DNA of 64,000 nucleotides. Source: Escherichia coli (GTDB lineage Bacteria; Pseudomonadota; Gammaproteobacteria; Enterobacterales; Enterobacteriaceae). The stretch lies in the NCBI RefSeq assembly GCF_003991155.1, contig NZ_CP031293.1; one strand, given 5' to 3'. The first letter of the stretch is position 1; each line of letters opens with the position of its first letter. Both the position numbers and the translations under genes were made by a program. The notes beneath the pieces are model-generated. The model did no database searches. It saw nothing but the letters and a program-made list of their open reading frames with translations, and was not told the DNA's origin. Shown in pieces: positions 23,166 to 48,391 of the stretch.

Positions 23166-23384
23166 GCCCCTCGCCCTCCACTTAATTTCCTGTAATGGCG
23201 GTCTGGTTGATAAGCCATGAAACAAGATTGCCACACCTTAAGTGCAGCCCTGGTGCCTGTCGGCACTGCGATGAAAGAACTAAATGATGCCGCCATACCC
23301 TGATCCTTTCAGGGTGGTAGGGGTATAAAGACGCGCCTGTACTCTACCGGACGCTTCCGGGCAACCCACTTCCCACCGAAGTTG

Positions 23385-23545
23385 TTGGTATTGACTGACT
23401 GGCTGGTCTTCTGGCTTAGCGTCATCCTCTCCCGACCTTCCCAATCTCGCGATCAGTGGCATTTTCGGGTTTGTCAGCATTACAGCAGCGGGGGCTGCGA
23501 GGGATTTTCACCCTCTTCCCAGGCACAAATGTGCCACACCTGTCA
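23385..23545 (-). promoter_or_regulatory. Cobalamin (B12) riboswitch aptamer of the cbi/cob leader
   Basis: The minus strand reads GCCTGGGAAGAGGGTGAAAATCCCTCGCAGCCCCCGCTGCTGTAA...GCCACTG...AAGCCAGAAGACCAGCCAG. The last element is the B12 box at 23399-23417. These match the conserved cobalamin riboswitch core. Confidence 0.85.
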
Positions 23546-23649
23546 GCGTATGTTATGAGCTGATTTCACTTTTCCCATAACAGGGAAATAACGTTAATTA
23601 TTCATTCCAGAGTTTATTTAAACCGTCCTCTTTTTTTGGGGCATTTACT

Positions 23650-24564
23650 CTATACCGTTTCCATCGCCGCATTATCACTCACTTGCTGTCGATACACCTG
23701 CGGCGTAACCTGATAAGTCTGACGGAAAACTTTGCAAAAATAACTTGTTTGCGAAAAACCTAAATTACGCGCAATGCTGGCGATGCTCCAGTCACTATGG
23801 CACAGTAACTCACGAGCGCTGGCCATCCGTTGTTGGTTTACCCACGCATTAAACCCGATTCCATGGTATTTCTTAAATAACTTACTGAAATAATAAGGGC
23901 TTAGATAAACGTGCGAGGCGACATCTTCCAGACGCAAATCGTCTGATAAATGCGCATCAATATAACGTAAAGCTTTTTTCATTTTATTGTCGTGGGGACC
24001 AGGCGCACGAGTCTGGCGCAACGAATCTGACTGAGATTTGTTCTCTTTAATAACCACAAAATTGAGTTGTTTTTTTAGGCAATTTTCTACAATCAACTTC
24101 AACAAATCCGCAGAGGCCATAACTCTTGAGTAATCCATCTCAGGGACTTTGCGAAATTCATTAAGTAATTCGGGATCTGCCTGCCAGCAATCATCGACAT
24201 TCAGAATATCGACCAAATCGACATCATCATTACGCAGACGAACTTGCCCGCACAATACAAAACCAACTAAATGTCCGGCGATTACCAGTGGAATAGAGAA
24301 ATCGGTTAATCCGGCATGACAGCGATAAATACAAGGCTGATCGGATTTAGAGGCTTCCAGCCCCCCACAACGATCGCTCATGCGACATCGAGTGCTCATC
24401 TGAGGGTGTTGCCGCATCATCTGACAAAATGGAGTGAAGTTAAACAGCTCGGAAATTTCATCGCCGTGAATATTGACCACGACAACCGCAAGGCTGGTCG
24501 CCTGCGCAAAATCCTGCGCGATTTTATTAATGAGTTCTGAATTAAGTGTCGCCGCAGAAATCAT
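23650..24564 (-). CDS. pocR: AraC-family regulator PocR of the pdu/cob regulon
   Basis: The ORF is 304 aa with a C-terminal AraC HTH (ARNLGFSQTSYFCKVFRQ). Its position between the cob leader and pduF matches Salmonella. Confidence 0.9.
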   Translation of the reverse strand: MISAATLNSELINKIAQDFAQATSLAVVVVNIHGDEISELFNFTPFCQMMRQHPQMSTRCRMSDRCGGLEASKSDQPCIYRCHAGLTDFSIPLVIAGHLVGFVLCGQVRLRNDDVDLVDILNVDDCWQADPELLNEFRKVPEMDYSRVMASADLLKLIVENCLKKQLNFVVIKENKSQSDSLRQTRAPGPHDNKMKKALRYIDAHLSDDLRLEDVASHVYLSPYYFSKLFKKYHGIGFNAWVNQQRMASARELLCHSDWSIASIARNLGFSQTSYFCKVFRQTYQVTPQVYRQQVSDNAAMETV

Positions 24565-24766
24565 GATAAAACCTCCCAGTTAATTTATTGTTATAGCAAA
24601 ACAATTGTTTTACATTTAATCTTCACATCATCCTTGATGATTTACTGACGAGAAGCACAAAGGACAATAACAAAAGCCTCCGTGAAGCGGGAGACTTTTT
24701 AATAAGTTCGGAAAGCAGATCACAAACAGTAAAAAAATAAACGTTTATAACTGCCAGATTATTTCA

Positions 24767-25576
24767 TTATTCGCTGATTTCTTTAGGCGTTACACTATTG
24801 ACAGGTAAATTCTTTGCAATGAGATAGCGATAAATCGCCGCACCAACACATGCCCCAATGATCGGTGCAATAATGGGTACAATGAAATAAGGAATATTGC
24901 GTCCACCAGTCATCGCAATTTCCCCCCAACCCGCAAACCAGGTGAAAATTTTAGGTCCAAAATCACGCGCTGGATTCATGGCAAAACCGGTTAATGGTCC
25001 GGTAGAAGCACCAATAACAGCAACCAGAATACCAATAAGTAAAGGCGCAAGCGGTCCTTTGGGTACGCCATTACCGTCATCGGTCAACGCCATAATCAAC
25101 CCCATTAACATGGACGTTATGACCACTTCGACCAACGCAGCTTGCCATACATTAATCGCCGCTGCTGGATAAGTACTGAAGATACTGGCGAGTTGTAAAC
25201 TTTCTGCGCTACCACGCACTATATTGTGAGCAGATTCAAAATCGATAAACAAACTGCTGTAGAGAGAATATGCCAGAACCGCACCACCAAAGGCACCCGC
25301 TAATTGCGCCACACAAAATGGCAGCACTTTACGGGCTGGGAAAGAGGCAAACAGCCACAGAGCAATGGTAACTGCCGGGTTGAGATGAGCGCCGGAAATA
25401 CCTGCCGTAAGGTAAACAGCAAGCGAAATCCCTAACCCCCATATGATACAAATTTCCCACAGTCCCAGACTTGCCCCGGCAACTTTCAGGGCGCACAAAC
25501 AACCAATGCCAAAAAAGAGGAACAGTCCGGTGCCCAAAAACTCGGCAACGCATTGCGCCTTGAGTGAATCATTCAT
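24767..25576 (-). CDS. pduF: Propanediol diffusion facilitator PduF (MIP family)
   Basis: The start is MNDSLKAQCVAEFLGTG. Two NPA boxes are present (GAHLNPAVT and MNPARDFGP). Confidence 0.9.
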   Translation of the reverse strand: MNDSLKAQCVAEFLGTGLFLFFGIGCLCALKVAGASLGLWEICIIWGLGISLAVYLTAGISGAHLNPAVTIALWLFASFPARKVLPFCVAQLAGAFGGAVLAYSLYSSLFIDFESAHNIVRGSAESLQLASIFSTYPAAAINVWQAALVEVVITSMLMGLIMALTDDGNGVPKGPLAPLLIGILVAVIGASTGPLTGFAMNPARDFGPKIFTWFAGWGEIAMTGGRNIPYFIVPIIAPIIGACVGAAIYRYLIAKNLPVNSVTPKEISE

Positions 25577-25985
25577 AGTGACACCTTCTTTACGGAGTTT
25601 TTCTTTATCAGCCAACTATGCGCTGATTGTTGTGTATACCGAGCGCAACTATAAAAAATTGCTCTGCAGAAAATATTGCCAACATGCATGACAGACTCGT
25701 GTAAAAATCGTGCTAACATAACAAATTATTGTCATTGCCGAATCATGCAACACAGCTTTAATCAGTGTTGAAGTAATAATTTCCACCAAACTTTTACAAT
25801 AAAAAATTGCCATCATGACATAATAAAATTGAAACAAATATCACAGTTCCTTCCTCGAACCAAACTCAACGAAATATTATTCGCGATTAAACTCACTAGC
25901 CAACGCAATTAATTCACATTGAAACATCCACAAAACAACCAATAAATTAACAACATATAGTTCATAAAAGCAATTTTATTATATT

Positions 25986-25994
25986 TGTTCTCTA
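25986..25994. repeat. IS1 target-site duplication, left copy (TGTTCTCTA)
   Basis: It is identical to 26763-26771 and directly abuts the IS1 end. Confidence 0.9.
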
Positions 25995-26009
25995 GGTAAT
26001 GACTCCAAC

Positions 26010-26513
26010 TTATTGATAGTGTTTTATGTTCAGATAATGCCCGATGACTTTGTCATGCAGCTCCACCGATTTTGAAAACGACAGCGACTTCCGTCCCAGC
26101 CGTGCCAGGTGCTGCCTCAGATTCAGGTTATGCCGCTCAATTCGCTGCGTATATCGCTTGCTGATTACGTGCAGCTTTCCCTTCAGGCGGGATTCATACA
26201 GCGGCCAGCCATCCGTCATCCATATCACCACGTCAAAGGGTGACAGCAGGCTCATAAGACGCCCCAGCGTCGCCATAGTGCGTTCACCGAATACGTGCGC
26301 AACAACCGTCTTCCGGAGCCTGTCATACGCGTAAAACAGCCAGCGCTGGCGCGATTTAGCCCCGACGTATCCCCACTGTTCGTCCATTTCCGCGCAGACG
26401 ATGACGTCACTGCCCGGCTGTATGCGCGAGGTTACCGACTGCGGCCTGAGTTTTTTAAATGGCGGAAAATCGTGTTGAGGCCAACGCCCATAATGCGGGC
26501 GGTTGCCCGGCAT
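26010..26513 (-). CDS. insB: IS1 InsB (expressed as the InsAB' fusion by frameshift)
   Basis: The ORF is 167 aa (..[30 protein letters not shown]..). Confidence 0.95.
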
Positions 26514-26707
26514 CCAACGCCATTCATGGCCATATCAATGATTTTCTGGTGCGTACCGGGTTGAGAAGCGGTGTAAGTGAACTGCAGTTGCCATGTTTTA
26601 CGGCAATGAGAGCAGAGATAGCGCTGATGTCCGGCGGTGCTTTTGCCGTTACGCACCACTCCGTCAGTAGCTGAACAGGAGGGACAGCTGATAGAAACAG
26701 AAGCCAC
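26432..26707 (-). CDS. insA: IS1 InsA
   Basis: [51 protein letters not shown]... Confidence 0.95.
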
Positions 26708-26762
26708 TGGAGCACCTCAAAAACACCATCATACACTAAATCAGTAAGTTGGCAGCATCACC

Positions 26763-26771
26763 TGTTCTCTA
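26763..26771. repeat. IS1 target-site duplication, right copy (TGTTCTCTA)
   Basis: It is identical to 25986-25994. Confidence 0.9.
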
Positions 26772-26863
26772 TTAATTTTTCTCATTAGCCGAGTAAGTCA
26801 GCCATTCTTTTTCCTCGCTTTTTTTTATAGTCATATCGTCAAAAAAATCCAGGCGAGGTCTTT

Positions 26864-27148
26864 ATGCAACAAGAAGCGTTAGGAATGGTAGAAACCAAAG
26901 GCTTAACTGCCGCCATAGAGGCCGCAGATGCCATGGTGAAGTCGGCAAATGTTTTGCTGGTCGGCTACGAAAAAATAGGTTCCGGGCTGGTGACCGTCAT
27001 CGTTCGTGGTGATGTCGGGGCGGTAAAAGCGGCAACAGACGCGGGTGCCGCAGCTGCGCGTAACGTCGGCGAAGTAAAAGCCGTACACGTTATTCCCCGC
27101 CCACATACCGATGTCGAAAAAATCTTACCAAAGGGAATTAACCCATGA
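26864..27148 (+). CDS. pduA: BMC-H shell protein PduA
   Basis: [30 protein letters not shown]... is a BMC domain, and it is the first gene of the operon. Confidence 0.95.
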
Positions 27149-27957
27149 GCAGCAATGAACTGGTCGAACAGATCATGGCGCAGGTCATCGCTCGCGTAGC
27201 GACGCCAGAGCATGAGGTTCTCCCGAAAACCACTCATCAAATACGAGAGACGGCTATGGCAGAAAAAAGCTGCACGTTAACAGAATTTGTTGGCACCGCT
27301 ATTGGCGACACTGTAGGTCTGGTCATTGCGAACGTTGATAGCGCCCTGTTGGACGCGATGAAACTTGAAAAACGCTATCGTTCCATTGGCATTCTGGGGG
27401 CGCGTATTGGCGCAGGGCCACACATTATGGCCGCTGATGAAGCGGTAAAAGCCACCAACACTGAAGTTATTAGCATTGAACTTCCTCGCGATACTAAAGG
27501 CGGTGCCGGACACGGCTCATTGATCCTCTTAGGTGGCAACGATGTTTCCGACGTGAAACGCGGTATTGAAGTTGCCCTGAAAGAACTCGATCGGACCTTT
27601 GGTGATGTCTATGCCAACGAAGCCGGGCATCTTGAACTGCAATACACCGCCCGCGCCAGCTATGCACTGGAAAAAGCGTTTGGCGCTCCACTGGGACGGG
27701 CTTGCGGCGTTATTGTCGGCGCTCCGGCTGCGGTGGGTGTTCTGATGGCCGACACCGCGCTGAAGTCCGCCAATGTGGATGTCGTGGCATACAGCTCCCC
27801 CGCTCAAGGCACCAGCTACAGCAACGAAGTCATTCTGATTATCTCGGGTGACTCCGGCGCAGTCCGCCAGGCGGTCATCTCCGCACGCGCAATCGGTAAA
27901 ACCGTGCTTTCGACTCTCGGCGATACACCGAAAAACGATCGCCCTTCCTACATCTGA
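27145..27957 (+). CDS. pduB: BMC-T shell protein PduB (internal start for PduB' at 27256)
   Basis: The ORF is 270 aa. A second in-frame start gives [14 protein letters not shown] at codon 38, as in the known PduB/PduB' pair. Confidence 0.9.
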
Positions 27958-27975
27958 ATTCTCTGAGGCAGATTT

Positions 27976-29640
27976 ATGAGATCGAAAAGATTTGAAGCAC
28001 TGGCAAAACGCCCGGTCAACCAGGACGGTTTCGTTAAAGAGTGGATTGAAGAAGGCTTCATTGCGATGGAAAGCCCGAACGATCCTAAACCGTCAATCAA
28101 AATTGTTAACGGCGTCGTTACCGAACTGGATGGAAAACCCGCCAGTCAGTTTGACCTGATCGACCACTTTATCGCCCGCTACGGCATCAATCTCGCGCGC
28201 GCAGAAGAAGTCATCGCGATGGATTCGGTAAAACTTGCCAATATGTTGTGCGATCCAAATGTCAAACGTAGCGATATCGTTCCCCTTACCACAGCAATGA
28301 CGCCTGCAAAAATCGTCGAAGTGGTTTCGCAGATGAACGTGGTAGAGATGATGATGGCGATGCAGAAAATGCGCGCCCGTCGAACACCATCACAACAGGC
28401 TCACGTCACCAACATCAAAGATAACCCGGTACAAATTGCCGCCGACGCAGCTGAAGGCGCATGGCGCGGGTTTGATGAACAGGAAACCACTGTTGCCGTT
28501 GCTCGCTATGCACCGTTCAACGCCATCGCCCTGCTGGTCGGCTCACAGGTGGGACGTCCGGGCGTCTTGACCCAGTGTTCACTGGAAGAAGCCACCGAAC
28601 TGAAACTCGGTATGTTAGGCCACACCTGTTACGCCGAAACAATTTCTGTCTATGGTACAGAACCTGTTTTCACCGATGGCGATGATACCCCGTGGTCAAA
28701 AGGATTTCTCGCGTCATCCTATGCTTCTCGCGGCTTAAAAATGCGCTTTACTTCCGGCTCCGGCTCTGAAGTACAGATGGGTTACGCGGAAGGCAAATCA
28801 ATGCTTTATCTCGAGGCTCGATGCATTTACATCACCAAAGCCGCAGGCGTTCAGGGTCTGCAGAATGGTTCGGTAAGCTGCATCGGTGTTCCATCAGCTG
28901 TGCCATCAGGCATCCGCGCAGTATTAGCGGAAAACTTAATTTGCTCATCGCTGGATCTGGAATGCGCCTCCAGTAATGACCAGACCTTTACCCACTCGGA
29001 TATGCGCCGTACCGCACGTTTCCTGATGCAATTTCTGCCGGGTACCGACTTTATCTCGTCCGGTTTTTCCGCTGTGCCGAACTACGACAACATGTTTGCT
29101 GGTTCAAACGAAGATGCTGAAGACTTCGATGATTACAACGTCATTCAGCGTGACCTGAAGGTTGATGGCGGGCTGCGACCAGTACGCGAAGAAGATGTTA
29201 TCGCAATCCGCAATAAAGCCGCTCGCGCTTTACAGGCTGTCTTTGCCGGTATGGGACTACCGCCAATTACCGATGAAGAAGTCGAAGCGGCAACCTATGC
29301 CCACGGTTCGAAAGATATGCCTGAGCGCAATATTGTGGAAGACATCAAGTTCGCCCAGGAGATTATCAATAAAAACCGTAACAGCCTGGAAGTGGTGAAA
29401 GCCCTGGCGCAAGGCGGTTTTACCGATGTCGCCCAGGACATGCTCAACATGCAAAAAGCAAAACTGACCGGCGATTATCTCCATACCTCAGCCATCATCG
29501 TCGATGACGGACAAGTGCTCTCAGCGGTCAATGACATCAATGATTACGCCGGACCAGCTACAGGTTACCGCCTGCAAGGGGAACGCTGGGAAGAGATCAA
29601 AAATATTCCCGGTGCACTTGATCCCAACGAAATTGACTAA
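27976..29640 (+). CDS. pduC: B12-dependent diol dehydratase large subunit
   Basis: The ORF is 554 aa (MRSKRFEALAKRPVNQDGFVKEWIEEGFIAMESPNDPKPSIKI...). Confidence 0.95.
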   Translation: MRSKRFEALAKRPVNQDGFVKEWIEEGFIAMESPNDPKPSIKIVNGVVTELDGKPASQFDLIDHFIARYGINLARAEEVIAMDSVKLANMLCDPNVKRSDIVPLTTAMTPAKIVEVVSQMNVVEMMMAMQKMRARRTPSQQAHVTNIKDNPVQIAADAAEGAWRGFDEQETTVAVARYAPFNAIALLVGSQVGRPGVLTQCSLEEATELKLGMLGHTCYAETISVYGTEPVFTDGDDTPWSKGFLASSYASRGLKMRFTSGSGSEVQMGYAEGKSMLYLEARCIYITKAAGVQGLQNGSVSCIGVPSAVPSGIRAVLAENLICSSLDLECASSNDQTFTHSDMRRTARFLMQFLPGTDFISSGFSAVPNYDNMFAGSNEDAEDFDDYNVIQRDLKVDGGLRPVREEDVIAIRNKAARALQAVFAGMGLPPITDEEVEAATYAHGSKDMPERNIVEDIKFAQEIINKNRNSLEVVKALAQGGFTDVAQDMLNMQKAKLTGDYLHTSAIIVDDGQVLSAVNDINDYAGPATGYRLQGERWEEIKNIPGALDPNEID

Positions 29641-29649
29641 GGGTGAGAA

Positions 29650-30318
29650 ATGGAAATTAACGAAAAATTACTGCGTCAGATTATCGAAGGCGTGCTGGCA
29701 GAAATGCAAACCAGCGACAAGTCCGTTTCATTTCGTGCACCTGTCTCTGCAACTGTCTCTTCAGTGCCAGATACCGGAAATTTTCTGACCGAAATTGGCG
29801 AAGCCCAACAAGGCACTCAGCAAGATGAAGTCATTATTGCTGTAGGCCCGGCGTTCGGCCTGGCGCAAACCGTCAATATCATCGGTATTCCGCATAAAAA
29901 CATTTTGCGCGAAGTGATTGCCGGTATCGAAGAAGAAGGCATTAAAGCCCGTGTGATTCGCTGCTTTAAATCGTCCGATGTCGCATTCGTAGCAGTCGAA
30001 GGCGATCGTCTTAGTGGTTCAGGTATTGCTATCGGTATTCAGTCGAAAGGCACAACGGTTATCCACCAGCAGGGACTTCCCCCCTTGTCTAACCTGGAAC
30101 TTTTCCCACAAGCGCCTTTGTTGACGCTGGATACTTATCGTCAGATTGGCAAAAACGCCGCGCGTTATGCGAAGCGCGAGTCTCCACAACCGGTGCCGAC
30201 CCTCAACGATCAAATGGCGCGACCGAAATACCAGGCCAAATCTGCCATTTTGCATATTAAAGAGACGAAGTACGTGGTCACTGGCAAAAAACCGCAAGAA
30301 CTGCGCGTGACGTTTTAA
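29650..30318 (+). CDS. pduD: Diol dehydratase medium subunit
   Basis: The ORF is 222 aa with the N-terminal [19 protein letters not shown] encapsulation-peptide-like helix. Confidence 0.9.
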
Positions 30319-30332
30319 CAAAGGAAACCTTC

Positions 30333-30851
30333 ATGAATACCGATGCAATTGAGTCGATGGTCAGGGACGTGTTGAACCGCATGAACAGTTTACAGGGTGC
30401 AGCTCCTGTTTCTGCGGTCCCCAGCGCGTCAATACAGAGCGCCAAAGTGACGGATTACCCGCTGGCAAATAAACATCCGGAATGGGTTAAAACAGCAACC
30501 AATAAAACGCTCGACGATTTCACTCTGGAAAATGTGCTCAGCGATAACGTCACCGCCCAGGATATGCGCATTACCCCTGAAACATTGCGTATTCAGGCCG
30601 CGATTGCCAGAGATGCTGGTCGCGATCGCCTGGCGATGAATTTCGAACGCGCCGCTGAGCTTACCTCAGTACCGGATGATCGCATCCTCGAAATCTACAA
30701 TGCGTTACGCCCTTATCGTTCGACTAAGCAAGAACTTATTGCCATTGCTGACGATCTTGAACGGCGTTATCAGGCCAAAATTTGTGCTGCATTTGTCCGT
30801 GAAGCTGCGGAACTTTATGTCGAGCGCAAAAAACTGAAAGGCGACGATTAA
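30333..30851 (+). CDS. pduE: Diol dehydratase small subunit
   Basis: The ORF is 172 aa and lies in the expected operon position. Confidence 0.9.
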   Translation: MNTDAIESMVRDVLNRMNSLQGAAPVSAVPSASIQSAKVTDYPLANKHPEWVKTATNKTLDDFTLENVLSDNVTAQDMRITPETLRIQAAIARDAGRDRLAMNFERAAELTSVPDDRILEIYNALRPYRSTKQELIAIADDLERRYQAKICAAFVREAAELYVERKKLKGDD

Positions 30852-30896
30852 GGACGAACTATGCGATATGACGATTAAGGACGAACTATGCGATAT
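30843..30896 (+). repeat. Perfect tandem duplication, 2 x 27 bp (GACGATTAAGGACGAACTATGCGATAT), across the pduE stop / pduG start
   Basis: Copy 1 is 30843-30869 and copy 2 is 30870-30896. I verified them base by base. Confidence 0.95.
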
Positions 30897-32720
30897 ATAG
30901 CAGGCATTGATATCGGCAACTCATCAACAGAGGTTGCGCTGGCAACGCTCAGTGCAACTGGAGAGTTGTCGTTCGTGAGTAGCGCCCTGGCGGAAACCAC
31001 CGGAATTAAAGGTACGTTGCGTAACGTCCATGGTATTCAGGAGGCGCTCGCACAGGCAACGAAAAAAGTCGGCATCAATGTTAGCGATATTTCGCTTATT
31101 CGTATCAACGAAGCAACTCCGGTCATTGGTGATGTGGCGATGGAAACCATCACTGAAACTATCATCACCGAATCAACCATGATCGGTCACAACCCGAAAA
31201 CGCCGGGCGGAGTGGGGCTGGGCGTAGGGCTCACCATCACTCCGCAAGAGTTATTAACATGCCCGGCGGACACACCCTACATTCTGGTGGTGTCATCGGC
31301 ATTTGATTTTGCCGATATCGCAACAATGATAAACGCCTCCGTACGCGCCGGATATCAGCTGACTGGCGTTATTCTGCAACGCGACGATGGCGTACTGGTC
31401 AATAACCGCCTGGAAATTCCTCTCCCTATTGTTGATGAAGTCCTCTACATCGATCGTATTCCGCTCGGCATGCTGGCTGCGATTGAAGTTGCCGTTCCCG
31501 GGAAAGTTATCGAAACCCTGTCTAACCCGTATGGGATTGCCACCGTTTTCGCCCTCAATGCTGAAGAGACTAAAAATATTGTTCCTGTCGCGCGGGCGCT
31601 AATCGGCAACCGTTCAGCAGTGGTAGTGAAAACGCCTTCTGGCGACGTTAAAGCCCGTTCGATACCCGCCGGAAATATCGAACTGCTTTCTGCCGGGCGC
31701 ACAACGCGGGTTGATGTAGCTGCTGGTGCCGATGCCATTATGAAAGCGGTCGGTGAGTGCCCAAAACTGGAAAACGTGACGGGAGAACCTGGCTCCAACA
31801 TCGGCGGAATGCTGGAACATGTTCGCCAGACCATGGCTGAACTGACCAACAAACCCAGCCACGAAATTTTTATTCAGGATTTGCTGGCGATAGATACCTC
31901 TGTCCCCGTCAACGTAACCGGTGGTCTGGCAGGTGAATTTTCACTGGAACAGGCTGTGGGTATTGCCTCTATGGTGAAATCCGACCGTCTGCAAATGGCG
32001 ATGATCGCCAGTGAAATTAAGCAAAAACTGCATGTTGATGTTCAGGTCGGAGGCGCAGAAGCAGAAGCCGCCATTCAAGGGGCCTTGACTACCCCTGGAA
32101 CCACACGTCCACTGGCAATTCTGGACTTAGGTGCAGGCTCTACCGATGCCTCCATCATCAATCAGAAAGGGGAAATTGTTGCCACTCACCTTGCGGGTGC
32201 GGGCGACATGGTAACGATGATTATCGTTCGTGAGCTGGGCTTAAATGATCGTTATCTGGCAGAAGAAATCAAAAAGTACCCGTTGGCAAAAGTAGAAAGC
32301 CTGTTCCACTTACGCCATGAAGATGGCAGCGTTCAGTTCTTCCCTACTCCCCTATCCCCCTATGTATTTGCCCGCGTCTGTGTAGTGAAACCCGACGAAC
32401 TGGTGCCTATTCCCGGTGATTTGACGCTGGAAAAAGTACGCGCTGTTCGTCGCAGTGCGAAAGAGCGTGTCTTCGTAACCAATGCCCTGCGCGCGCTACG
32501 TCAGGTAAGCCCTGCCGGAAATATTCGCGACATTCCGTTCGTCGTTCTGGTGGGCGGTTCTTCGCTGGATTTCGAAGTACCACAGTTAGTCACCGATGCA
32601 TTGGCGCATTATCGACTGGTCGCCGGACGGGGGAATATCCGTGGTAGCGAAGGTCCGCGCAACGCGGTAGCTACTGGGCTACTCATCGCCTGGCACAAGG
32701 AGTCGATTCATGGAAAGTAA
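30888..32720 (+). CDS. pduG: Diol dehydratase reactivase large subunit
   Basis: The ORF is 610 aa (MRYIAGIDIGNSSTEVALA...). Confidence 0.9.
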   Translation: MRYIAGIDIGNSSTEVALATLSATGELSFVSSALAETTGIKGTLRNVHGIQEALAQATKKVGINVSDISLIRINEATPVIGDVAMETITETIITESTMIGHNPKTPGGVGLGVGLTITPQELLTCPADTPYILVVSSAFDFADIATMINASVRAGYQLTGVILQRDDGVLVNNRLEIPLPIVDEVLYIDRIPLGMLAAIEVAVPGKVIETLSNPYGIATVFALNAEETKNIVPVARALIGNRSAVVVKTPSGDVKARSIPAGNIELLSAGRTTRVDVAAGADAIMKAVGECPKLENVTGEPGSNIGGMLEHVRQTMAELTNKPSHEIFIQDLLAIDTSVPVNVTGGLAGEFSLEQAVGIASMVKSDRLQMAMIASEIKQKLHVDVQVGGAEAEAAIQGALTTPGTTRPLAILDLGAGSTDASIINQKGEIVATHLAGAGDMVTMIIVRELGLNDRYLAEEIKKYPLAKVESLFHLRHEDGSVQFFPTPLSPYVFARVCVVKPDELVPIPGDLTLEKVRAVRRSAKERVFVTNALRALRQVSPAGNIRDIPFVVLVGGSSLDFEVPQLVTDALAHYRLVAGRGNIRGSEGPRNAVATGLLIAWHKESIHGK

Positions 32721-33060
32721 AGAGCGTGCACCAGCCATCGTCGTCATGGAGATCGGTAACTGCATCACTATATGGGATGAGGTGCTTCTTGGCATTGAAG
32801 AGGAAGGTATTCCCTTTCGCATTCAACACATTCCGTCAGGTGAAGTTATCGATAGCGCCTGGCTGGCTGCTCGTCAATCTCCCCTGTTGGTTGGCATTGC
32901 CTGCGATCAGGAAAAACTGATTGTGCATTACAAAAACTTACCACCATCAGCGCCACTGTTTACGCTGATGTATCAACAAGATAACCATGCCCGGCGCAGC
33001 ATCGGCACTAACGCTGCCCGCCTGGTAAAAGGAATTCCCTTCCGGGAATTCCACTCATAA
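32710..33060 (+). CDS. pduH: Diol dehydratase reactivase small subunit
   Basis: The ORF is 116 aa, overlaps the pduG end, and is in the expected operon position. Confidence 0.85.
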
Positions 33061-33079
33061 TCCACAGGAGAAACGCAGT

Positions 33080-33355
33080 ATGAACAACGCACTAGGACTG
33101 GTTGAAACAAAAGGGTTAGTTGGCGCAATTGAAGCTGCAGATGCCATGGTTAAATCCGCCAACGTGCAGCTGGTTGGCTATGAAAAGATTGGTTCGGGTC
33201 TGATTACGGTGATGGTCCGCGGTGATGTTGGTGCAGTAAAGGCCGCCGTGGATGCGGGGAGCGCTGCGGCAAGCGCAGTTGGCGAAGTGAAATCCTGCCA
33301 TGTCATCCCGCGCCCACACAGTGATGTTGAGGCTATTTTACCTAAATCGGCATAA
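33080..33355 (+). CDS. pduJ: BMC-H shell protein PduJ
   Basis: [29 protein letters not shown]... Confidence 0.95.
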
Positions 33356-33378
33356 CCCCATTTGCTAAGGAGCACAGC

Positions 33379-33801
33379 GTGAAGCAATCACTGGGATTAC
33401 TTGAAGTCAGTGGTCTGGCACTCGCCATCAGTTGCGCAGATGCTATGGCAAAAGCCGCGTCCATCACGCTGGTTGGCCTTGAGAAGACCAATGGCTCAGG
33501 CTGGACGCTCATCAAAATCACCGGTGACGTCGCCTCGGTTAATGCGGCGATCGCGACGGGAGCCAGTTTCGCCGGACAGCGAAATGGCCTCGTCGCACAC
33601 AAAGTGATTGCCCGTCCGGGAGACGGCATTCTGCCCCACACAACTAAAGCATTGACTGTGACGGTTGAAACAAGCGAAACACCAGCAACAACCGTCATCT
33701 CAGAGATTATCAGTTGTAATTTGTGTCTTGACCCGGCATGTCAGCGGCAAAAAGGTGAGCCCCGCTCACTTTGCCTGCACGCCAATAAGCGAGGGGAGTA
33801 A
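33379..33801 (+). CDS. pduK: BMC shell protein PduK
   Basis: It has a GTG start, a BMC domain and a Cys-rich C-terminal tail (CNLCLDPACQRQKGEPRSLC). Confidence 0.9.
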   Translation: MKQSLGLLEVSGLALAISCADAMAKAASITLVGLEKTNGSGWTLIKITGDVASVNAAIATGASFAGQRNGLVAHKVIARPGDGILPHTTKALTVTVETSETPATTVISEIISCNLCLDPACQRQKGEPRSLCLHANKRGE

Positions 33802-33803
33802 CA

Positions 33804-34436
33804 GTGGATAAACAAACCTTGCAGGAAACAGTGAGCCAGATTCTGGATGAGATGCGCGAGCGCCCTATCCCTCTGGGTGTTTCCAGTCGTCATATTCATC
33901 TTTCAACAGCGGATTATTTGCGTCTTTTTCCTGAACAACCGATTAGCGAGAAAAAGCCGTTAATGCAACCTGGCCAATTCGCTGCTGAACAGGTTGTTAC
34001 GCTGGAGGGACCAAAAGGTAAATTGCACAACGTTCGCTTGTTGGGGCCGCTACGCAATGCAAGCCAGGTGGAAATTTCCCGGACGGACGCCAGAACGTTA
34101 GGGATCACCGCCCCGCTACGCATGTCAGGCGATCTCAGCGGCACTCCAGGGATTCGTTTGGTAAGCCCATTTGCGGAACTGGAGATCACATCTGGCGTCA
34201 TTGTCGCGCAACGGCATATTCATATGTCTCCGCTGGATGCCCTGATTTATGGCGTTACGCATGGCGATAAAGTGGCGGTTGCCATTGAAGGTGATGAGCG
34301 ACGACTGATATTCGAAAACGTCGCTGTTCGCGTCTCTCCGGATATGCGTCTTGAAATGCATATTGATACCGATGAAGCCAACGCCGCAGGGGCTGATAGC
34401 CCTGACGTTTTTGCCACACTGGTGTCAGTGCCATGA
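33804..34436 (+). CDS. pduL: Phosphotransacylase PduL
   Basis: The ORF is 210 aa with a GTG start and the text PLGVSSRHIHLS...AQRHIHMSP. Confidence 0.9.
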   Translation: MDKQTLQETVSQILDEMRERPIPLGVSSRHIHLSTADYLRLFPEQPISEKKPLMQPGQFAAEQVVTLEGPKGKLHNVRLLGPLRNASQVEISRTDARTLGITAPLRMSGDLSGTPGIRLVSPFAELEITSGVIVAQRHIHMSPLDALIYGVTHGDKVAVAIEGDERRLIFENVAVRVSPDMRLEMHIDTDEANAAGADSPDVFATLVSVP

Positions 34437-34924
34437 ATAACATGCTGATGCAACGTATTGTTGACGAAGTGGTTTTTCGCCTTAAACAACGTGCGGGAAA
34501 AACACTCGTGCTGACTGTTTTTCAACTGCGAGACGCCAGCGTTCAAGAGATAGTTCATCAGTATGCATCATTACAAATCCGATATGTCGATCTGCCGTTG
34601 TTACGACAACTTGCGGAGAACAAAACGTCAGATCGAGCAGCAATTCAGATACACGAAGCGTTAGCCTGGGGATTGCACATTCAATTGTCGTTGCAGCGTC
34701 ATTTCCTGAACGCCATTGAATTGAAGACTCTCGCCCGTCTACCGCTAAGCTGGTGCGACGAGCAAGGGCAACCGATCTACCTTCATCGTGATCGACTTTT
34801 AAGTTATGCCGATATTGCACAGTTAAGCTCGGGAATACTGGTGTTACAGCGAAAATGTTGTGTGACCGCACTGGCTCGTGAAGCGGCAATTACCCGAAAT
34901 ATTCAGTTAATCAGGCAGGAGTAA
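34433..34924 (+). CDS. pduM: Microcompartment structural protein PduM
   Basis: The ORF is 163 aa and lies in the expected operon position. Confidence 0.8.
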   Translation: MNNMLMQRIVDEVVFRLKQRAGKTLVLTVFQLRDASVQEIVHQYASLQIRYVDLPLLRQLAENKTSDRAAIQIHEALAWGLHIQLSLQRHFLNAIELKTLARLPLSWCDEQGQPIYLHRDRLLSYADIAQLSSGILVLQRKCCVTALAREAAITRNIQLIRQE

Positions 34925-34927
34925 CCT

Positions 34928-35203
34928 ATGCATCTGGCTCGAGTCACTGGCGCGGTAGTATCCACGCAAAAATCACCTTCTCTGATCGGGAAAAAACTGC
35001 TGCTGGTTCGCCGGGTCAGTGCTGACGGCGAACTGCCTCTCACGCCATTAACCGGCGACGAAGTTGCCGTTGATTCCGTCGGCGCAGGCGTTGGTGAGTT
35101 GGTACTCCTCAGCAGTGGTTCCAGCGCCAGACATGTGTTTTCCGGCCCTAACGAGGCCATCGACCTGGCAGTGGTCGGCATTGTCGATACGCTTTCGCGC
35201 TAA
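34928..35203 (+). CDS. pduN: BMC vertex (pentamer) protein PduN
   Basis: [27 protein letters not shown] is EutN/CcmL-type text. Confidence 0.9.
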
Positions 35204-35214
35204 GGAGCTGAAAG

Positions 35215-36222
35215 ATGGCAATTTATACCCGAACAGGTGATTCAGGAAGTACGTCTTTATTTACCGGACAGCGCGTCAGCAAAACTCATCTACGTGTCGA
35301 AACCTATGGCACGCTGGATGAACTGAACGCGACACTCAGTCTGTGTTATTGCGCCACCGCCATCGAAAGCCATCGCATCTTACTGGAAGCCATTCAACAA
35401 CAGATATTTTGGTTTAGCGCCGAACTCGCCAGTGAAAGCGAACAGCCGTCAGCGCAGCAGCGTTACATCGGTACGGAAGAAATTGCCGCGCTGGAAAACG
35501 CGATCGATAGCGCAATGAACGCCGTCCCCCCGGTTCACAGCTTCATTCTGCCTGGTCGATGTGAAGCTGCAAGCCGCATGCATTTCGCCCGCACGGTGGC
35601 TCGACGGGCTGAAAGACGTCTGGTTGAACTGACAACAGAAACCACCGTCCGGAATGTTTTGCTGCACTATATCAACCGACTTTCCGATTGCCTGTATGCC
35701 CTCGCCCGCGTGGAAGACAACGTTGCTCATCAAAACCTGATGATTCAGGAAATCACAAAACGTTATCACGAAGCCAACCACACACCAGCATTGAAGGAAC
35801 GCACAATGCCGCTCACTTTTCAGGATCTTCACCAGCTCATTCGTAGTGCGGCAATGCGCGCAGATGAACTGCATATTCCCGTTGTCATCAGCATTGTTGA
35901 TGCCAACGGAACAGAAAGTGTTACCTGGCGGATGCCTGATGCCCTGTTGGTCAGCAGTGAACTGGCACCGAAAAAAGCCTGGACCGCCGTGGCGATGAAA
36001 ACGGCAACCCACAAACTTGCTGATACCGTGCAACCCGGCGCGCCGCTTTACGGGCTCGAAAGCCATATGCAAGGCAAAGTCGTCACTTTTGGTGGCGGCT
36101 TCCCCCTCTGGCGTGACGGAAAATTGCTTGGCGGGCTTGGCATCAGCGGCGGTAGCGTTGAACAAGACATGGATATTGCCCAAAGCGCAATGGCGGCAAT
36201 TAACGTGGGAGTAAACCAATGA
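35215..36222 (+). CDS. pduO: ATP:cob(I)alamin adenosyltransferase PduO
   Basis: The ORF is 335 aa (MAIYTRTGDSGSTSLFTGQRVSK...). Confidence 0.9.
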   Translation: MAIYTRTGDSGSTSLFTGQRVSKTHLRVETYGTLDELNATLSLCYCATAIESHRILLEAIQQQIFWFSAELASESEQPSAQQRYIGTEEIAALENAIDSAMNAVPPVHSFILPGRCEAASRMHFARTVARRAERRLVELTTETTVRNVLLHYINRLSDCLYALARVEDNVAHQNLMIQEITKRYHEANHTPALKERTMPLTFQDLHQLIRSAAMRADELHIPVVISIVDANGTESVTWRMPDALLVSSELAPKKAWTAVAMKTATHKLADTVQPGAPLYGLESHMQGKVVTFGGGFPLWRDGKLLGGLGISGGSVEQDMDIAQSAMAAINVGVNQ

Positions 36223-37604
36223 ATAACTCTGAATTAGAAACACTGATCCGCAATATTCTGCGTGAGCAGCTTGCCCCCGCTACGCAACGAGCGCAAAGAA
36301 ACGCTATTTTCCAGACTGTTGATGAAGCGGTCTGCGCAGCGCACCAGGCCTTTTTACGCTTTCAACAGTGCCCGCTTAAAACCCGTAGCGCCATTATCAG
36401 CGCCATTCGCGAAGAATTAATGCCCCGCCTTACCGAACTGGCAGAAGAAAGCGCCAGTGAAACAGGGATGGGAAATAAAGAGGATAAGTATCTAAAGAAC
36501 AAAGCAGCACTCAATAATACGCCAGGAATTGAAGATTTAACCACCACTGCACTAACCGGTGATGGTGGCATGGTTTTGTTTGAATACTCCCCGTTTGGGG
36601 TTATTGGCTCGGTCACGCCAAGCACCAACCCCACGGAAACCATCATTAACAACAGCATCAGCATGCTGGCAGCAGGTAATAGCGTCTACTTCAGTCCACA
36701 CCCGGGAGCCAAATACGTTTCGTTAAAACTGATTACCACAATCGAAGACATCGCGTTTCGCTGTAGTGGCATTCACAACCTGATCGTTACCGTATCTGAA
36801 CCGACCTTTGCCGCCACCGAACAGATGATGGCGCACCCTAAAATCAGCGTTCTGGCGATTACCGGCGGTCCGGGGATCGTCGCCATGGGAATGAAAAGTG
36901 GCAAGAAAGTGATTGGTGCCGGTGCGGGTAACCCTCCGTGCATCGTCGATGAAACGGCGGATATTGTGAAAGCCGCCGAAGATATCATCAACGGCGCTTC
37001 ATTTGATTACAACCTGCCGTGTATCGCTGAAAAAAGCCTGATTGTCGTGGCATCAGTGGCAGAGTATTTAATTCAGCAGATGCAAAGTTTTGGCGCGCTT
37101 CTTCTTAACTATGAGCAAACGGAGAAATTGCGTGCAATTTGCCTGCCAGACGGTAGCGCCAACAAAAAACTGGTTGGGAAAAGCCCATCAGCCTTGCTGG
37201 AAGCGGCAGGCCTCCCTTTGCCCGCAAAAGCGCCGCGCCTACTGATTGCTGTTGTCGACGCCAATGATAGTTGGGTTACTTGTGAACAACTGATGCCAAT
37301 GCTGCCCATTGTGAAGGTCAACGATTTTGATAGCGCTCTCGCCCTGGCGTTGAAAGTGGAAGACGGCTTGCACCACACGGCAATTATGCACTCGCAGAAC
37401 GTCTCACGGCTCAACCTTGCCGCGCGCGTTATGCAAACCTCAATCTTTGTCAAAAACGGCCCCTCTTGGGCGGGTATTGGCGTCGGCGGCGAAGGCTTTA
37501 CGACCTTTACTATTGCAACACCGACCGGAGAAGGGACAACGTCAGCACGGACTTTTGCCCGCTCACGACGCTGTGTGTTAACCAGCGGCTTTTCAATTCG
37601 CTAG
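36219..37604 (+). CDS. pduP: CoA-acylating propionaldehyde dehydrogenase PduP
   Basis: The ORF is 461 aa with aldehyde dehydrogenase text and an N-terminal targeting helix (ELETLIRNILREQL). Confidence 0.9.
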   Translation: MNNSELETLIRNILREQLAPATQRAQRNAIFQTVDEAVCAAHQAFLRFQQCPLKTRSAIISAIREELMPRLTELAEESASETGMGNKEDKYLKNKAALNNTPGIEDLTTTALTGDGGMVLFEYSPFGVIGSVTPSTNPTETIINNSISMLAAGNSVYFSPHPGAKYVSLKLITTIEDIAFRCSGIHNLIVTVSEPTFAATEQMMAHPKISVLAITGGPGIVAMGMKSGKKVIGAGAGNPPCIVDETADIVKAAEDIINGASFDYNLPCIAEKSLIVVASVAEYLIQQMQSFGALLLNYEQTEKLRAICLPDGSANKKLVGKSPSALLEAAGLPLPAKAPRLLIAVVDANDSWVTCEQLMPMLPIVKVNDFDSALALALKVEDGLHHTAIMHSQNVSRLNLAARVMQTSIFVKNGPSWAGIGVGGEGFTTFTIATPTGEGTTSARTFARSRRCVLTSGFSIR

Positions 37605-37614
37605 AGAAACGGAA

Positions 37615-38727
37615 ATGAATACTTTTTCACTGCAGACGCGTTTATACAGCGGACCAGGAAGTCTCAAGGTACTTAGCCGTTTCTCTCATAGACACATCTG
37701 GATTATTTGCGATGCCTTTCTGGCACACTCACCACTCATTGACACGTTGCATCAGGCGCTGCCAGACAGTAATCGTCTCAGTATTTTTAGCGAAATAACG
37801 CCCGACCCAACTATCCAGACCGTGGTGAAAGGCATTGCGCAAATGCAGACTTTACGCCCGGATGTGGTTATCGGTTTTGGCGGCGGTTCTGCCCTGGACG
37901 CCGCAAAAGCGATTGTCTGGTTTGGTCGCCAGTGTGGCATTGAAATTGAAACCTGCGTAGCCATTCCTACCACCAGCGGTACCGGTTCCGAAGTGACCAG
38001 TGCTTGTGTCATCAGCGATCCTGAGAAAGGGATTAAATATCCCCTTTTCGATAATGCACTTTATCCGGATATCGCGATCCTTGATCCATCTCTGGTCGTC
38101 AGCGTGCCACCGGCGATAACGGCCAATACCGGGATGGATGTTTTAACCCATGCGCTTGAAGCTTATGTTTCTCCTCGCGCCAGCGACTTCACGGATGCAC
38201 TGGTCGAAAAAGCCGTGCAAATTGTTTTTCAATACCTGCCCACTGCAGTGAAGAAAGGCGATTGTCTCGCCACCCGTGGCAAAATGCATAATGCATCGAC
38301 ACTTGCAGGAATGGCCTTTAGCCAGGCTGGACTGGGATTAAACCATGCAATTGCTCATCAACTCGGCGGACAGTTTCATCTGCCACACGGCCTGGCGAAT
38401 GCGCTCCTGCTCACGGCGGTTATCCGCTTTAATGCTGGCGATCCGCGCGCTGCCAAACGCTACGCCCGGCTGGCGAAAACGTGCCATTTATGCCCGGACA
38501 ACGCCAATGACACCGCCAGCCTGAATGCACTTATTCAACATATTGAACAGCTTAAAACAACCTGTACGCTGCCGACTCTTACCAATGCGCTGAAAGAAAA
38601 AAAAGCAGAATGGTCAATACGCATACCAGATATGGTTCAGGCGGCACTGGCGGATGCAACGTTGCGTACCAACCCGCGTGCGGCTGATGCCTCCGCGATT
38701 GCAGAACTGCTCGAGGAGTTGTTATGA
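37615..38727 (+). CDS. pduQ: 1-propanol dehydrogenase PduQ (iron-type ADH)
   Basis: The ORF is 370 aa (GGGSALDAAKA...HAIAHQLGGQFHLPHG). Confidence 0.9.
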   Translation: MNTFSLQTRLYSGPGSLKVLSRFSHRHIWIICDAFLAHSPLIDTLHQALPDSNRLSIFSEITPDPTIQTVVKGIAQMQTLRPDVVIGFGGGSALDAAKAIVWFGRQCGIEIETCVAIPTTSGTGSEVTSACVISDPEKGIKYPLFDNALYPDIAILDPSLVVSVPPAITANTGMDVLTHALEAYVSPRASDFTDALVEKAVQIVFQYLPTAVKKGDCLATRGKMHNASTLAGMAFSQAGLGLNHAIAHQLGGQFHLPHGLANALLLTAVIRFNAGDPRAAKRYARLAKTCHLCPDNANDTASLNALIQHIEQLKTTCTLPTLTNALKEKKAEWSIRIPDMVQAALADATLRTNPRAADASAIAELLEELL

Positions 38728-40067
38728 ACGTCGAGTTAACCTCCTGCGACGACCAGACCATCCGCGAGCGAGTACAGGCAGCAGGTGTCGTGGGTGCTGG
38801 CGGGGCAGGTTTTCCAACCCATATTAAGCTACAAGCGCGTGTTGACACGTTCCTGGTGAATGCGGCGGAATGCGAACCCATGTTGAAAGTGGATCAACAG
38901 TTAATGGTGCAGCAAGCCAGCCGCCTGCTTCGCGGTGTTCACTATGCGATGAAAGCCACCGGGGCCAGTAGCGGAATCATCGCGCTGAAAGAGAAATATC
39001 AACGGGCAATAAACGCACTCACACCACTGTTACCACCGGATATCCGCCTGCATATTTTGCCCGATGTTTACCCCGCAGGAGACGAAGTGCTGACCATCTG
39101 GATGGCAACTGGTCGCCGCGTTCCACCCGCTGCATTACCCGTTAGCGTCGGTGTGGTGGTCAATAATGTTCAAACCGTACTTAATATTGCCAGAGCCGTC
39201 GAGCAACAGTATCCAGTGACGCGCCGCACACTCACTATTAATGGTGCAGTGGCGAAACCAATAACGGTAACCGTCCCCATCGGCATGTCTTTCCGTGAAG
39301 TCCTGGCGCTGGCGGGCGGCGCAACAGTAGATGCTCCTGGTTTTATCAATGGCGGGCCGATGATGGGAAGTTTGATCACATCGCTCGACACACCCGTCAG
39401 CAAAACCACTGGCGGCTTGCTGGTTTTACCCAACTCTCATTCACTGATCCAACGTCGAATGCAGAATGACCGCAGCGTACTTACCGTCGCGAAAACTGTT
39501 TGTGAGCAATGCCGCTTGTGTACCGATCTCTGCCCACGTCATTTAGTCGGTCACGAACTGGCCCCCCATTTATTAGTACGTGCGGTTAACTACCAACAGC
39601 TCGCTACGCCACAACTGTTACTGACGGCGCTCACCTGTTCGGAGTGCAACGTCTGCGCCAGCGTCGCCTGTCCGGTAGGAATTTTACCAATGCGCATAAA
39701 CCGCCTGCTTAAGCAGGAATTACGCGCACAAAATCTCCGCTACGAAGGTGCCTTAAATCCTGCAGATCCCTTGGCAAATTATCGACTGGTTCCCGTAAAA
39801 CGGCTGGTAACCAGACTGGGCTTAACCCCGTGGTATCAGGATGCGCCATTGTCTGAACAGGTGCCTCAGCCCGAAAAAGTGACGTTATTGTTACGCCAGC
39901 ACATCGGTGCCAGCGCAATTGCGTGTGTACAAAAAGGCGATCGCGTCGTTCATGGGCAATGTGTAGGTCAAATTCCACACGGCACATTAGGTGCCCCCAT
40001 TCATGCCAGTATTGATGGCATGGTCAGCGATGTGACAGAAAACGCGATTACGCTTGTGAGAGGTTAA
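38724..40067 (+). CDS. pduS: Cobalamin reductase PduS (RnfC-like, Fe-S)
   Basis: The ORF is 447 aa with [12 protein letters not shown] and two Cys clusters ([12 protein letters not shown] and [13 protein letters not shown]). Confidence 0.9.
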
Positions 40068-40069
40068 CG

Positions 40070-40624
40070 ATGTCGAAAGCGGTAGGTATTTTAGAACTTA
40101 GCAGTATCGCGAAAGGGATGGAAACCGGCGACGCCATGCTGAAAAGCGCCAACGTTGAGTTACTGGTCAGCAAAACGCTATGCCCCGGAAAATTTCTGCT
40201 GATGCTCGGTGGCGATGTGGGCGCGGTGCAACAGGCCATCAACAGCGGTGCTTCCCTTGCTGGTGAAATGCTGGTCGACAGTCTTGTCCTGCCGAATATT
40301 CATCCCAGTCTCCTTTCTGCAATCAGCGGACTGAACCAAGTTGAACAGCACCGGGCTGTCGGCGTAGTCGAAACCTGGAGTGTCGCCGCCTGCATTGACG
40401 CTGCCGATTGTGCTGTCAAAGCTGCGAATGTCATTCTTGTTCGCGTGCATATGGCTTTTGGCATTGGCGGTAAATGCTACATGGTGGTTGCTGGCGATAT
40501 TTCAGATGTTAATAACGCGGTCTCTGTCGCCAGCGAGCGTGCGGGAGAAAAAGGTTTGTTGGTCTATCGGTCGGTGATTGCCCGTCCACATGAAGCCATG
40601 TGGCGTCAGATGGTGGAGGGATAA
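40070..40624 (+). CDS. pduT: BMC-T shell protein PduT
   Basis: The ORF is 184 aa with tandem BMC domains. Confidence 0.9.
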
Positions 40625-40974: not shown

Positions 40975-40978
40975 CGTT

Positions 40979-41422: not shown

Positions 41423-41480
41423 TTTCGATAGGTTCTCAGATGAGAATGATGACGGTGATACACAGATAAGAATCAATGAG

Positions 41481-41509
41481 CAATGAGGGTTGCCGGGCAA
41501 CCCTCATTG
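41481..41509. terminator. Palindromic bidirectional terminator between convergent pduV and yeeX
   Basis: CAATGAGGGTTGCC-G-GGCAACCCTCATTG has perfect 14-bp arms. Confidence 0.7.
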
Positions 41510-41522
41510 AATAAAACAGGAA

Positions 41523-48373: not shown

Positions 48374-48391
48374 CGTTGCGTTGGTTATCTG

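Follow-up and report, generated by a model that had tools for sequence, protein, structure and literature searches.

Does an insertion sequence that has settled between an operon and its divergently transcribed neighbor leave the operon within reach of its activator? This question is raised by a stretch of 64,000 nucleotides of Escherichia coli contig NZ_CP031293.1 (assembly GCF_003991155.1), referred to below as the window, in which a copy of IS1 lies between pduF and pduA, upstream of a pdu operon whose activator gene, pocR, is found on the other side. An earlier note on this DNA had proposed that PocR-dependent promoter elements may have been separated from the operon. We found that IS1 entered the control region recently, and that it lies between a predicted core promoter, which stayed with pduA, and conserved upstream boxes, which it displaced. 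The induction of pduA-V by PocR and 1,2-propanediol has probably been lost as a result.

Recent insertion of IS1 between pduF and pduA

The element was complete. It measured exactly 768 bp (25995-26762, minus strand), and both of its canonical ends were present with 0 mismatches, each of them occurring a single time in the 64-kb window. It was bordered on both sides by the 9-bp sequence TGTTCTCTA, which was found twice in the window and once in the genomes in which the site is empty, a match of 9 bp at two given positions having an a-priori probability of 4^-9 (~4e-6). When the window was compared with the empty-site genome MRY15-117, positions 24122-25994 and 26763-45295 aligned at 100% identity, with zero mismatches, and the two alignments shared exactly 9 bp of the reference, which corresponded to the target duplication. 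The description in the earlier note of a complete 768-bp IS1 with a perfect 9-bp duplication was thus confirmed by the exact ends, by the two copies of TGTTCTCTA, and by this overlap.

About 20 complete E. coli genomes, all from one clone, were ~100% identical to the window over positions 1-25000, and the empty pduF-pduA intergenic region measured 510 bp in MRY15-117 and in the other members of this clone. The region was carried by 642 of 5,426 complete E. coli genomes (~12%), and 639 of these matched it as one uninterrupted place. None of the 5,426 genomes contained IS1 at the pduF/pduA site, and a 32-mer spanning the right IS1 junction had no match in the metagenome collection. The only full-coverage match among the complete genomes, E. 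coli 17MR471 (NZ_CP051158), carried its IS1 elsewhere, within pocR. Since the flanks and the operon were identical to those of the empty-site clone, and since the site was unoccupied in the other complete genomes, the insertion is recent and private to this strain, as well as simple. The target was the AT-richest segment of the control region (28.5% GC over 25800-25999), in agreement with the preference of IS1 for AT-rich DNA.

We also considered that a misassembly or a collapsed repeat could have placed IS1 at this position. IS1 is a multicopy element (median of 10 matching places per genome) and a frequent source of assembly errors, and its junction was without match in any other record searched. 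However, exact ends combined with a perfect 9-bp duplication of a single-copy sequence are the signature of transposition and not of misjoining, so that an artifact is hardly credible.

A predicted core promoter retained next to pduA

The pdu promoter (Ppdu) was located by comparative sequence analysis of the pduF-pduA regions of Escherichia ruysiae, E. whittamii, Escherichia sp., Pseudocitrobacter, Intestinirhabdus, Scandinavium, four Yersinia, Tolumonas, and a Salmonella-type locus (L031; Logan ERR9783140), the orthologues being anchored at the -10 without gaps. The Salmonella-type locus was found via PocR homologues; a scan of genome contigs with PduF gave no Salmonella, Citrobacter, or Klebsiella. 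The strongest conservation of the whole region was observed for AAGTCAGCCATTCTTTTTCCTCGC...TATAGT (26795-26831). In eight genera, including Escherichia, Pseudocitrobacter, Intestinirhabdus, Scandinavium, Salmonella, Yersinia, and Tolumonas, a CAGCCATTCTTTTT block preceded the -10 by exactly 27 bp. Yersinia and Tolumonas had TATATT as the -10, and the others TATAGT. Across the orthologues, 37 to 86 nt separated the -10 from the ATG of pduA, and the fixed spacing between block and -10 in spite of this variable leader indicates a promoter rather than a leader element.

With the ATG of pduA at 26864, the segment that remained on the pduA side of IS1 extends from 26763 to 26863 and has the length of 101 bp given in the earlier note. 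The core promoter predicted by this comparison (-35 block and -10) lies within the retained 101 bp, and transcription of pdu would be expected to start near 26838. As a sigma-70 site, the native core was poor, with a score of ~3.5 in a crude matrix, which is what is expected of an activator-dependent promoter. A gapped alignment of Ppdu with the cob promoter (Pcob), in a register that put the pdu start at AAGTCAG, was rejected because it was not conserved across genera, while the register anchored at the -10 was. A full-text search of the literature yielded nothing usable on the transcription start of pduA, on IS1 in the pdu locus of E. coli, or on a requirement for integration host factor (IHF).

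Displacement of the conserved upstream boxes

Upstream of the core, all Ppdu orthologues that had the core block carried an RCAAT motif between -76 and -79 relative to the -10, except Tolumonas, where it was about one helical turn closer (-66). It was also present at -77 in four Pcob orthologues, three of which had a second RCAAT at -153 to -155. The sequence between the RCAAT box and the core was variable across orthologues. According to Teng 2024 (PMC11264322), PocR box II of Pcob comprises 48 bp and ends 9 bp before the -35, and box I comprises 20 bp and lies 52 bp further upstream; the Pcob primers of that study matched L031 exactly. The proximal box at 25970-25988 (Table 1) would correspond by its position to the 5' part of Pcob box II, and by the same analogy it presumably binds PocR at the pdu promoter.

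Counted from the start of the -10 in the empty site, the 9-bp target occupied -63 to -55, which is about -70 from the predicted transcription start. It covered the final 3 nt of the 19-mer box and lay within the 48-bp stretch that matches Pcob box II by position. After the insertion, an intact box is found on the pduF side of IS1, and the core has kept only TGTTCTCTA and the downstream sequence. The box has moved 777 bp farther away (~856 bp from the -10, as compared with 79 bp), and the interval that separates it from the -35 block has increased from ~31 to ~808 bp. In terms of the PocR-type layout, the core contiguous with pduA was kept, while an RCAAT box contiguous with the core at ~77-79 bp was lost.

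A position matrix for PocR boxes was built from ten Pcob box I and box II orthologues (99th percentile of shuffles, 14.4). Its top three matches in the 64-kb window, at 25714-25732 (-), 25721-25739 (+), and 25644-25662 (-), had scores of 15.3-16.1, and all three were in the pduF-pduA region, to the left of IS1. The matrix detected nothing significant in the retained 101 bp. On the minus strand, the palindromic site at 25714-25739 occupied position -79 relative to the -10 of a putative leftward pduF promoter. For the box at -79 of Ppdu, the score was ~21 in Yersinia, which is the level of the training sites, 9-15 in Pseudocitrobacter, 8.8 in the Salmonella-type locus, and 3.5 in E. coli. A candidate at 25905-25923, whose TCACAT core was conserved across the compared orthologues, is tentatively taken as a second, distal pdu box.

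Thus, the proposal of the earlier note that PocR-dependent elements were split from the operon is supported by the comparison for the conserved box and for all strong PocR-box-like sites, but not for the core promoter. Conversely, the situation that the note had named as contrary to its proposal, in which the promoter and the PocR sites would all be contained in the 101 bp, applies to the core (-35 block and -10) and not to the upstream boxes. The comparison with uninterrupted regions that the note had suggested places the insertion between the two.

The putative pduF promoter, Ppdu, and the Salmonella Pcob (L031 4913-5080) displayed a common three-part layout, i.e. an RCAAT box at -77 to -79, a G(C/G)CA(A/T)T..TTTT block (CAGCCATTCTTTTT-type) that precedes the -10 by ~27 bp, and TA(T/C)AGT after a stretch rich in T. 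The block that overlaps the -35 resembles a degenerate copy of the box. The Pcob of Salmonella enterica has in common with Ppdu the RCAAT at about -77, a CCA(T/G)T..TTTTT block at the -35, and a TA(T/C)AGT -10. In Pcob, the -10 is TACAGT, with CCAGTTTTT at the matching distance and AACAATAAATTGTCAT at -77, and the second box is at -153 to -155, whereas the pdu candidate is at -144 and weak. We also tried to read the conserved boxes as IHF sites (WATCAANNNNTTR), but the distal box and both IS1 ends fitted at 8-9 of 9 positions and the Ppdu-proximal box at only 6-7 of 9, and this assignment was abandoned. IHF is said to have been found necessary for cob/pdu induction by Rondon and Escalante-Semerena in 1997.

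The pdu and cob control regions were mosaic between lineages. Escherichia sp. MOD1-EC7003 (L007) combined a pduA leader of the type of S. Typhimurium SL1344 (exact match to a published primer) with a Salmonella-like Pcob, while L031 matched the LT2-derived Pcob primers exactly and had a pduA leader different from that of SL1344. A contig binned as a Veillonella parvula metagenome-assembled genome (L003; JAGZPX010000009.1) contained an E. coli-type pdu locus, with a PduF 99% identical and a near-identical intergenic region; it is almost certainly a misbinned E. coli contig.

Candidate promoters at the IS1 junctions

A consensus scan detected no sigma-70-like promoter within IS1 that reads toward pduA. 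The known inward promoter pIRL (CTGCCA-16-TATGAT) was detected, and it reads away from pduA. The left inverted repeat (IRL) of IS1, which adjoins the retained segment, holds an outward -35-like TTGGCA (26749-26754, plus strand) as well as AATCAGTAAGTTG (26739-26751), which resembles the IHF consensus. TTGGCA matches TTGACA at 5 of 6 positions and is located 8 bp from the IS1 end. At a spacing of 18 bp, the flank provides TAATTT, with 3 of 6 matches to a -10, in which the A at position 2 and the T at position 6 are kept. The resulting junction site scored 8.6 in the crude sigma-70 matrix, in which ~1.5 sites per kb and per strand score >=8. It was the best plus-strand site between IS1 and pduA, and the stricter consensus scan did not list it. 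On the opposite side, the junction formed with the right inverted repeat (IRR; Table 1) could add uninduced transcription toward pduF and pocR.

Within the native control region, the sigma-70-like site with the highest score was TTGAAA-18-TAAATT at 25919-25948 (plus strand; score 11.4), ~120 bp upstream of the core and directed toward pduA. Any transcript initiated at this site now enters IS1.

Consequences for pdu expression

Published data on Salmonella promoters bear on the effect of the insertion. Pcob in which box II was replaced did not respond to PocR (PMC11264322), and Pcob lacking box I showed a 'significant loss of function' (PMC11264322). Ppdu yielded ~50 AU without PocR and ~3500 AU with it, and in an in-vivo PocR roadblock assay two Ppdu boxes 215 bp apart acted like the boxes of Pcob (PMC11264322). 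A segment of 373 bp upstream of pduA sufficed for the response to PocR and propanediol (PMC4245221). Because replacement of box II abolishes activation of Pcob, because Ppdu is so weak without PocR, and because 101 bp are left here as compared with the 373 bp known to suffice, loss of the PocR/1,2-propanediol induction of pduA-V is probable and represents, by analogy, the most likely outcome. The series of events would be as follows. IS1 would have transposed recently, in one member of the clone, into the AT-richest part of the pduF/pduA control region, the core promoter staying with pduA and the conserved upstream boxes being pushed 777 bp away. The core would be very weak without PocR, and PocR would no longer be able to induce pduA-V in response to 1,2-propanediol. 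The operon would then be silent, or would show a low, uninduced expression from the junction promoter made of TTGGCA in the IRL and TAATTT in the flank. Between silencing and constitutive expression, both of which the earlier note had considered, the sequence thus speaks for a loss of induction, accompanied by weak constitutive transcription at most. The pduF-pocR unit would keep its own box, block, and -10, and its regulation should stay normal since its promoter elements are entirely to the left of IS1.

Several observations weigh against a loss of induction. Conservation and the analogy with Pcob are the basis on which the promoter and the boxes were assigned. The Ppdu boxes reported by Teng et al. 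(stated as 80% and 56%, 215 bp apart) were not recovered; sequences resembling box I were found at 75-80%, and there was no 48-mer at 56% at that distance. For this reason, we relied on position-anchored conservation. With its score of 3.5, the E. coli -79 box fits the matrix poorly, and Ppdu of E. coli may lean on this box less, or on other contacts. A degenerate box-like repeat, GCCATTCTTTTT, which overlaps the -35 (score 5.6), was retained and might support some PocR action. The RNA used in another study started 44 nt before the ATG of pduA (PMC10433801), which may correspond to a different transcription start, though one inside the retained segment. Finally, the junction promoter scored 8.6 and the native core ~3.5, so that expression need not be zero.

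Near-normal induction could persist if the retained 101 bp were sufficient, for instance owing to the repeat that overlaps the -35, or if the displaced boxes acted by looping. The most conserved block of the region (26795-26831) is indeed retained, the E. coli -79 box is degenerate, and the distance of 215 bp that already separates the Ppdu boxes (Teng et al., PMC11264322) suggests some action at a distance. We nevertheless regard an absence of functional change as improbable, because the distance from box to -10 differs between genera by no more than 1-3 bp, or by one helical turn, which argues for a phase-dependent contact that 777 bp would destroy, and because Pcob, with an equivalent -35 block and -10, is unresponsive to PocR once box II is replaced. 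A gain of basal transcription from the native core, of the type described for bgl, would imply that H-NS silences the AT-rich region and that IS1 breaks the silencing complex. The low GC content of the target (28.5%) fits with this, and IS1 or IS5 near the bgl promoter relieve H-NS repression, with like cases at flhDC and ade (PMC2753651). Insertions of the bgl/fuc type also lie in AT-rich upstream regulatory regions, and between the divergent fucAO and fucPIK operons, again in a propanediol context, an insertion sequence activates one operon and silences the other (PMC2753651). However, bgl keeps its essential CRP site with the promoter, and in the bgl/fuc type more generally the activator site is kept or replaced, whereas the pdu IS1 splits the candidate boxes from the promoter, with all strong PocR-box-like sites beyond the element; loss rather than gain is thus expected. 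The pdu promoter is, in addition, almost inactive without PocR even on a high-copy plasmid (PMC11264322), which makes an activation of this type very improbable.

Constitutive expression would result if the junction promoter were strong enough to drive pduA-V without PocR or propanediol. InsA and IHF bind the IRL, and the -35 inside this repeat should be dampened; constitutive expression of a 19-gene microcompartment operon would furthermore be costly. The outward -35 of IS1 does make hybrid promoters when a -10 is well placed, as for afaA (+7 log2), bla, and acrEF (PMC8764528, PMC9330008), and the junction site has the best sigma-70-like score of the plus strand between IS1 and pduA. As in the known hybrid promoters (bla, Prentki et al. 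1986; afa in E. coli sequence type 131 (ST131); acrEF), an outward -35 end lies upstream of the operon, and the spacer is set by 8 bp of the repeat and the 9-bp duplication. In the ST131 cases, however, IS1 was oriented like the downstream gene, while here the IRL end faces the operon and the -10 of the flank is weak (TAATTT, 18-bp spacer, 3 of 6 matches), and the candidate site failed in the stricter consensus scan. Hybrid promoters are also the exception in ST131, where IS1 upstream of osmB had an effect of -2 log2 and IS1 upstream of ugd caused no change (PMC8764528). Appreciable constitutive expression of pduA-V is for these reasons unlikely. It looks distinctly unlikely that the locus has been rewired as a whole, with a low PocR-independent expression of pduA-V from the IRL junction and a constitutive expression of pduF-pocR from the IRR junction. 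If true, such rewiring would mean that a natural isolate makes its microcompartments independently of the sensing of propanediol.

Structure of IS1 and flanking genes

The coordinates of the features are listed in Table 1. Compared with IS1A of K-12, the present IS1 had 10 mismatches over 768 bp (98.7% identity), and the conceptual InsAB' transposase (232 aa) had 2 substitutions. Its terminal inverted repeats (25994-26017 and 26740-26763) were imperfect, with arms of 24 nt that were 79% complementary. A -1 frameshift motif of the A6C type, TTAAAAAAC, was present at 26450-26458 (IS1 position 305). The element shares with the IS1A/IS1R type of E. coli the length of 768 bp, imperfect repeats of ~23 bp, insA and insB' with an A6C frameshift, a 9-bp duplication, and a preference for AT-rich targets, and structurally nothing distinguishes it from IS1A. 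Its transposase genes point toward pduF and away from pduA. This copy is apparently functional, since its coding capacity is intact and the insertion is recent and private.

Table 1. Position of the features discussed in the text, in window coordinates
Feature	Position	Strand	Details
Predicted core pdu promoter	26795-26831	+	Block AAGTCAGCCATTCTTTTT; -35 CATTCT (26803-26808), 17-bp spacer, -10 TATAGT (26826-26831)
Target-site duplication, left copy	25986-25994		TGTTCTCTA, 9 bp, perfect
Target-site duplication, right copy	26763-26771		TGTTCTCTA, 9 bp, perfect
Proximal upstream box, candidate	25970-25988	+	GCAATTTTATTATATTTGT; -79 to -61 from the -10 start in the empty site
Distal box, candidate	25905-25923	+	GCAATTAATTCACATTGAA; -144 from the -10 start in the empty site; score 7.1; displaced by IS1
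Palindromic PocR-box-like site	25714-25739	both	ACAATAATTTGTTAT on one strand, ACAAATTATTGTCATTGCC on the other; top two matrix matches of the 64 kb
Putative pduF promoter	25644-25680	-	-10 TATAGT (25653-25648), -35 block GGCAATATTTTCT; wholly left of IS1
IS1 right inverted repeat (IRR)	25995-26017	-	Adjoins pduF side; holds TATCAATAAGTTG (9/9 IHF consensus) and outward TTGGAG
IS1 left inverted repeat (IRL, insA end)	26740-26762	-	Adjoins pduA side
insA	26432-26707	-	91 aa, intact
insB frame	26010-26513	-	
Junction promoter candidate toward pduA	26749-26778	+	IRL -35 TTGGCA, 18-bp spacer including the duplicated target, flank TAATTT (26773-26778)
Junction promoter candidate toward pduF/pocR	25978-26008	-	IRR TGGAGT or TTGGAG, 18/19-bp spacer, perfect TATAAT (25983-25978); scores 9.0 and 8.5
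pdu operon, pduA-pduV	26864-41422	+	14.56 kb, 19 genes (pduABCDEGHJKLMNOPQSTUV), intact
pduF	24767-25576	-	269 aa, propanediol diffusion facilitator
pocR	23650-24564	-	304 aa, AraC-family activator, intact

The statement of the earlier note that the pdu operon (~14.5 kb) is otherwise intact was borne out, as positions 26763-45295 were without mismatch to a genome in which pduA-pduV are annotated as intact. On the other side, the start of pduF was set at the ATG at 25576, as indicated by the RefSeq annotation of an identical sequence, by conservation across genera, and by a conserved AAGGTG ribosome-binding site upstream. The 379 bp that the note had assigned to the pduF side were measured to a TTG at 25615, the start of an open reading frame; the ATG gives 418 bp, including the duplicated copy of the target.

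Other elements were noted in the vicinity. The spacer between pocR and pduF contained a match to the enterobacterial small RNA family STnc230 (24625-24708, plus strand; 76 bits for a gathering score of 50), in antisense orientation with respect to both genes. A cobalamin riboswitch (23384-23558, 109 bits; within 23235-23649 of the window, minus strand) preceded a small open reading frame and cobUST, and the stop codon of pocR was only ~90 bp away from it. The PocR boxes of the Salmonella cob promoter were absent from this interval of ~90 bp. The E. coli cob promoter could for that reason not serve as an internal reference and was dropped, and the remnant cob genes of E. coli are probably outside PocR control.

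Synteny with the otherwise identical clone stopped at 45295, ~48 nt inside the 5' end of sbcB, a gene that serves as the attachment site of Shigella phage Sf101. The remainder of the window (45296-64000) was a P22-like prophage with tailspike, portal, DNA-transfer proteins, and terminase. Its best matches in relatives were 94-97% identical and occupied other chromosomal positions. This prophage represents a second private mobile-element event, at most 20 kb from IS1.

Significance

The event described here is an ordinary IS1 insertion in a single strain, and it belongs to a known class of insertions in regulatory regions (bgl, fucAO/fucPIK, flhDC, afa, acrEF). What is distinctive is that the activator-dependent promoter of a large and otherwise perfect microcompartment operon was bisected within a divergent region, with the regulator unit left untouched. 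In 17MR471 (NZ_CP051158.1; L001 2402-4093), an independent IS1 splits pocR, and the pduF-pduA region and the pdu genes are intact. That insertion breaks the activator gene, whereas the present one breaks the promoter of the structural operon and leaves pocR intact. Shigella boydii and S. flexneri have entries for truncated forms of PocR (P0062 and P0073; 257-265 aa, 98% identical), a hint of decay of the locus in Shigella. Together with the pocR insertion of 17MR471, these forms suggest that the regulation of pdu is lost repeatedly in this group of species.

The three-part layout shared by the pduF, pdu, and cob promoters would, if new, define the cis-regulatory code of the PocR regulon, and the present natural allele, in which a promoter is bisected, offers a tool to find out which upstream elements the pdu promoter needs. 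In Salmonella, luminal replication in the inflamed gut depends on the pdu operon (PMC10433801). If the promoter has been cut from its activator boxes, surveys of gene content would call this strain 'pdu-positive' although it would be phenotypically negative or deregulated, and regulatory insertions of this kind need checking.

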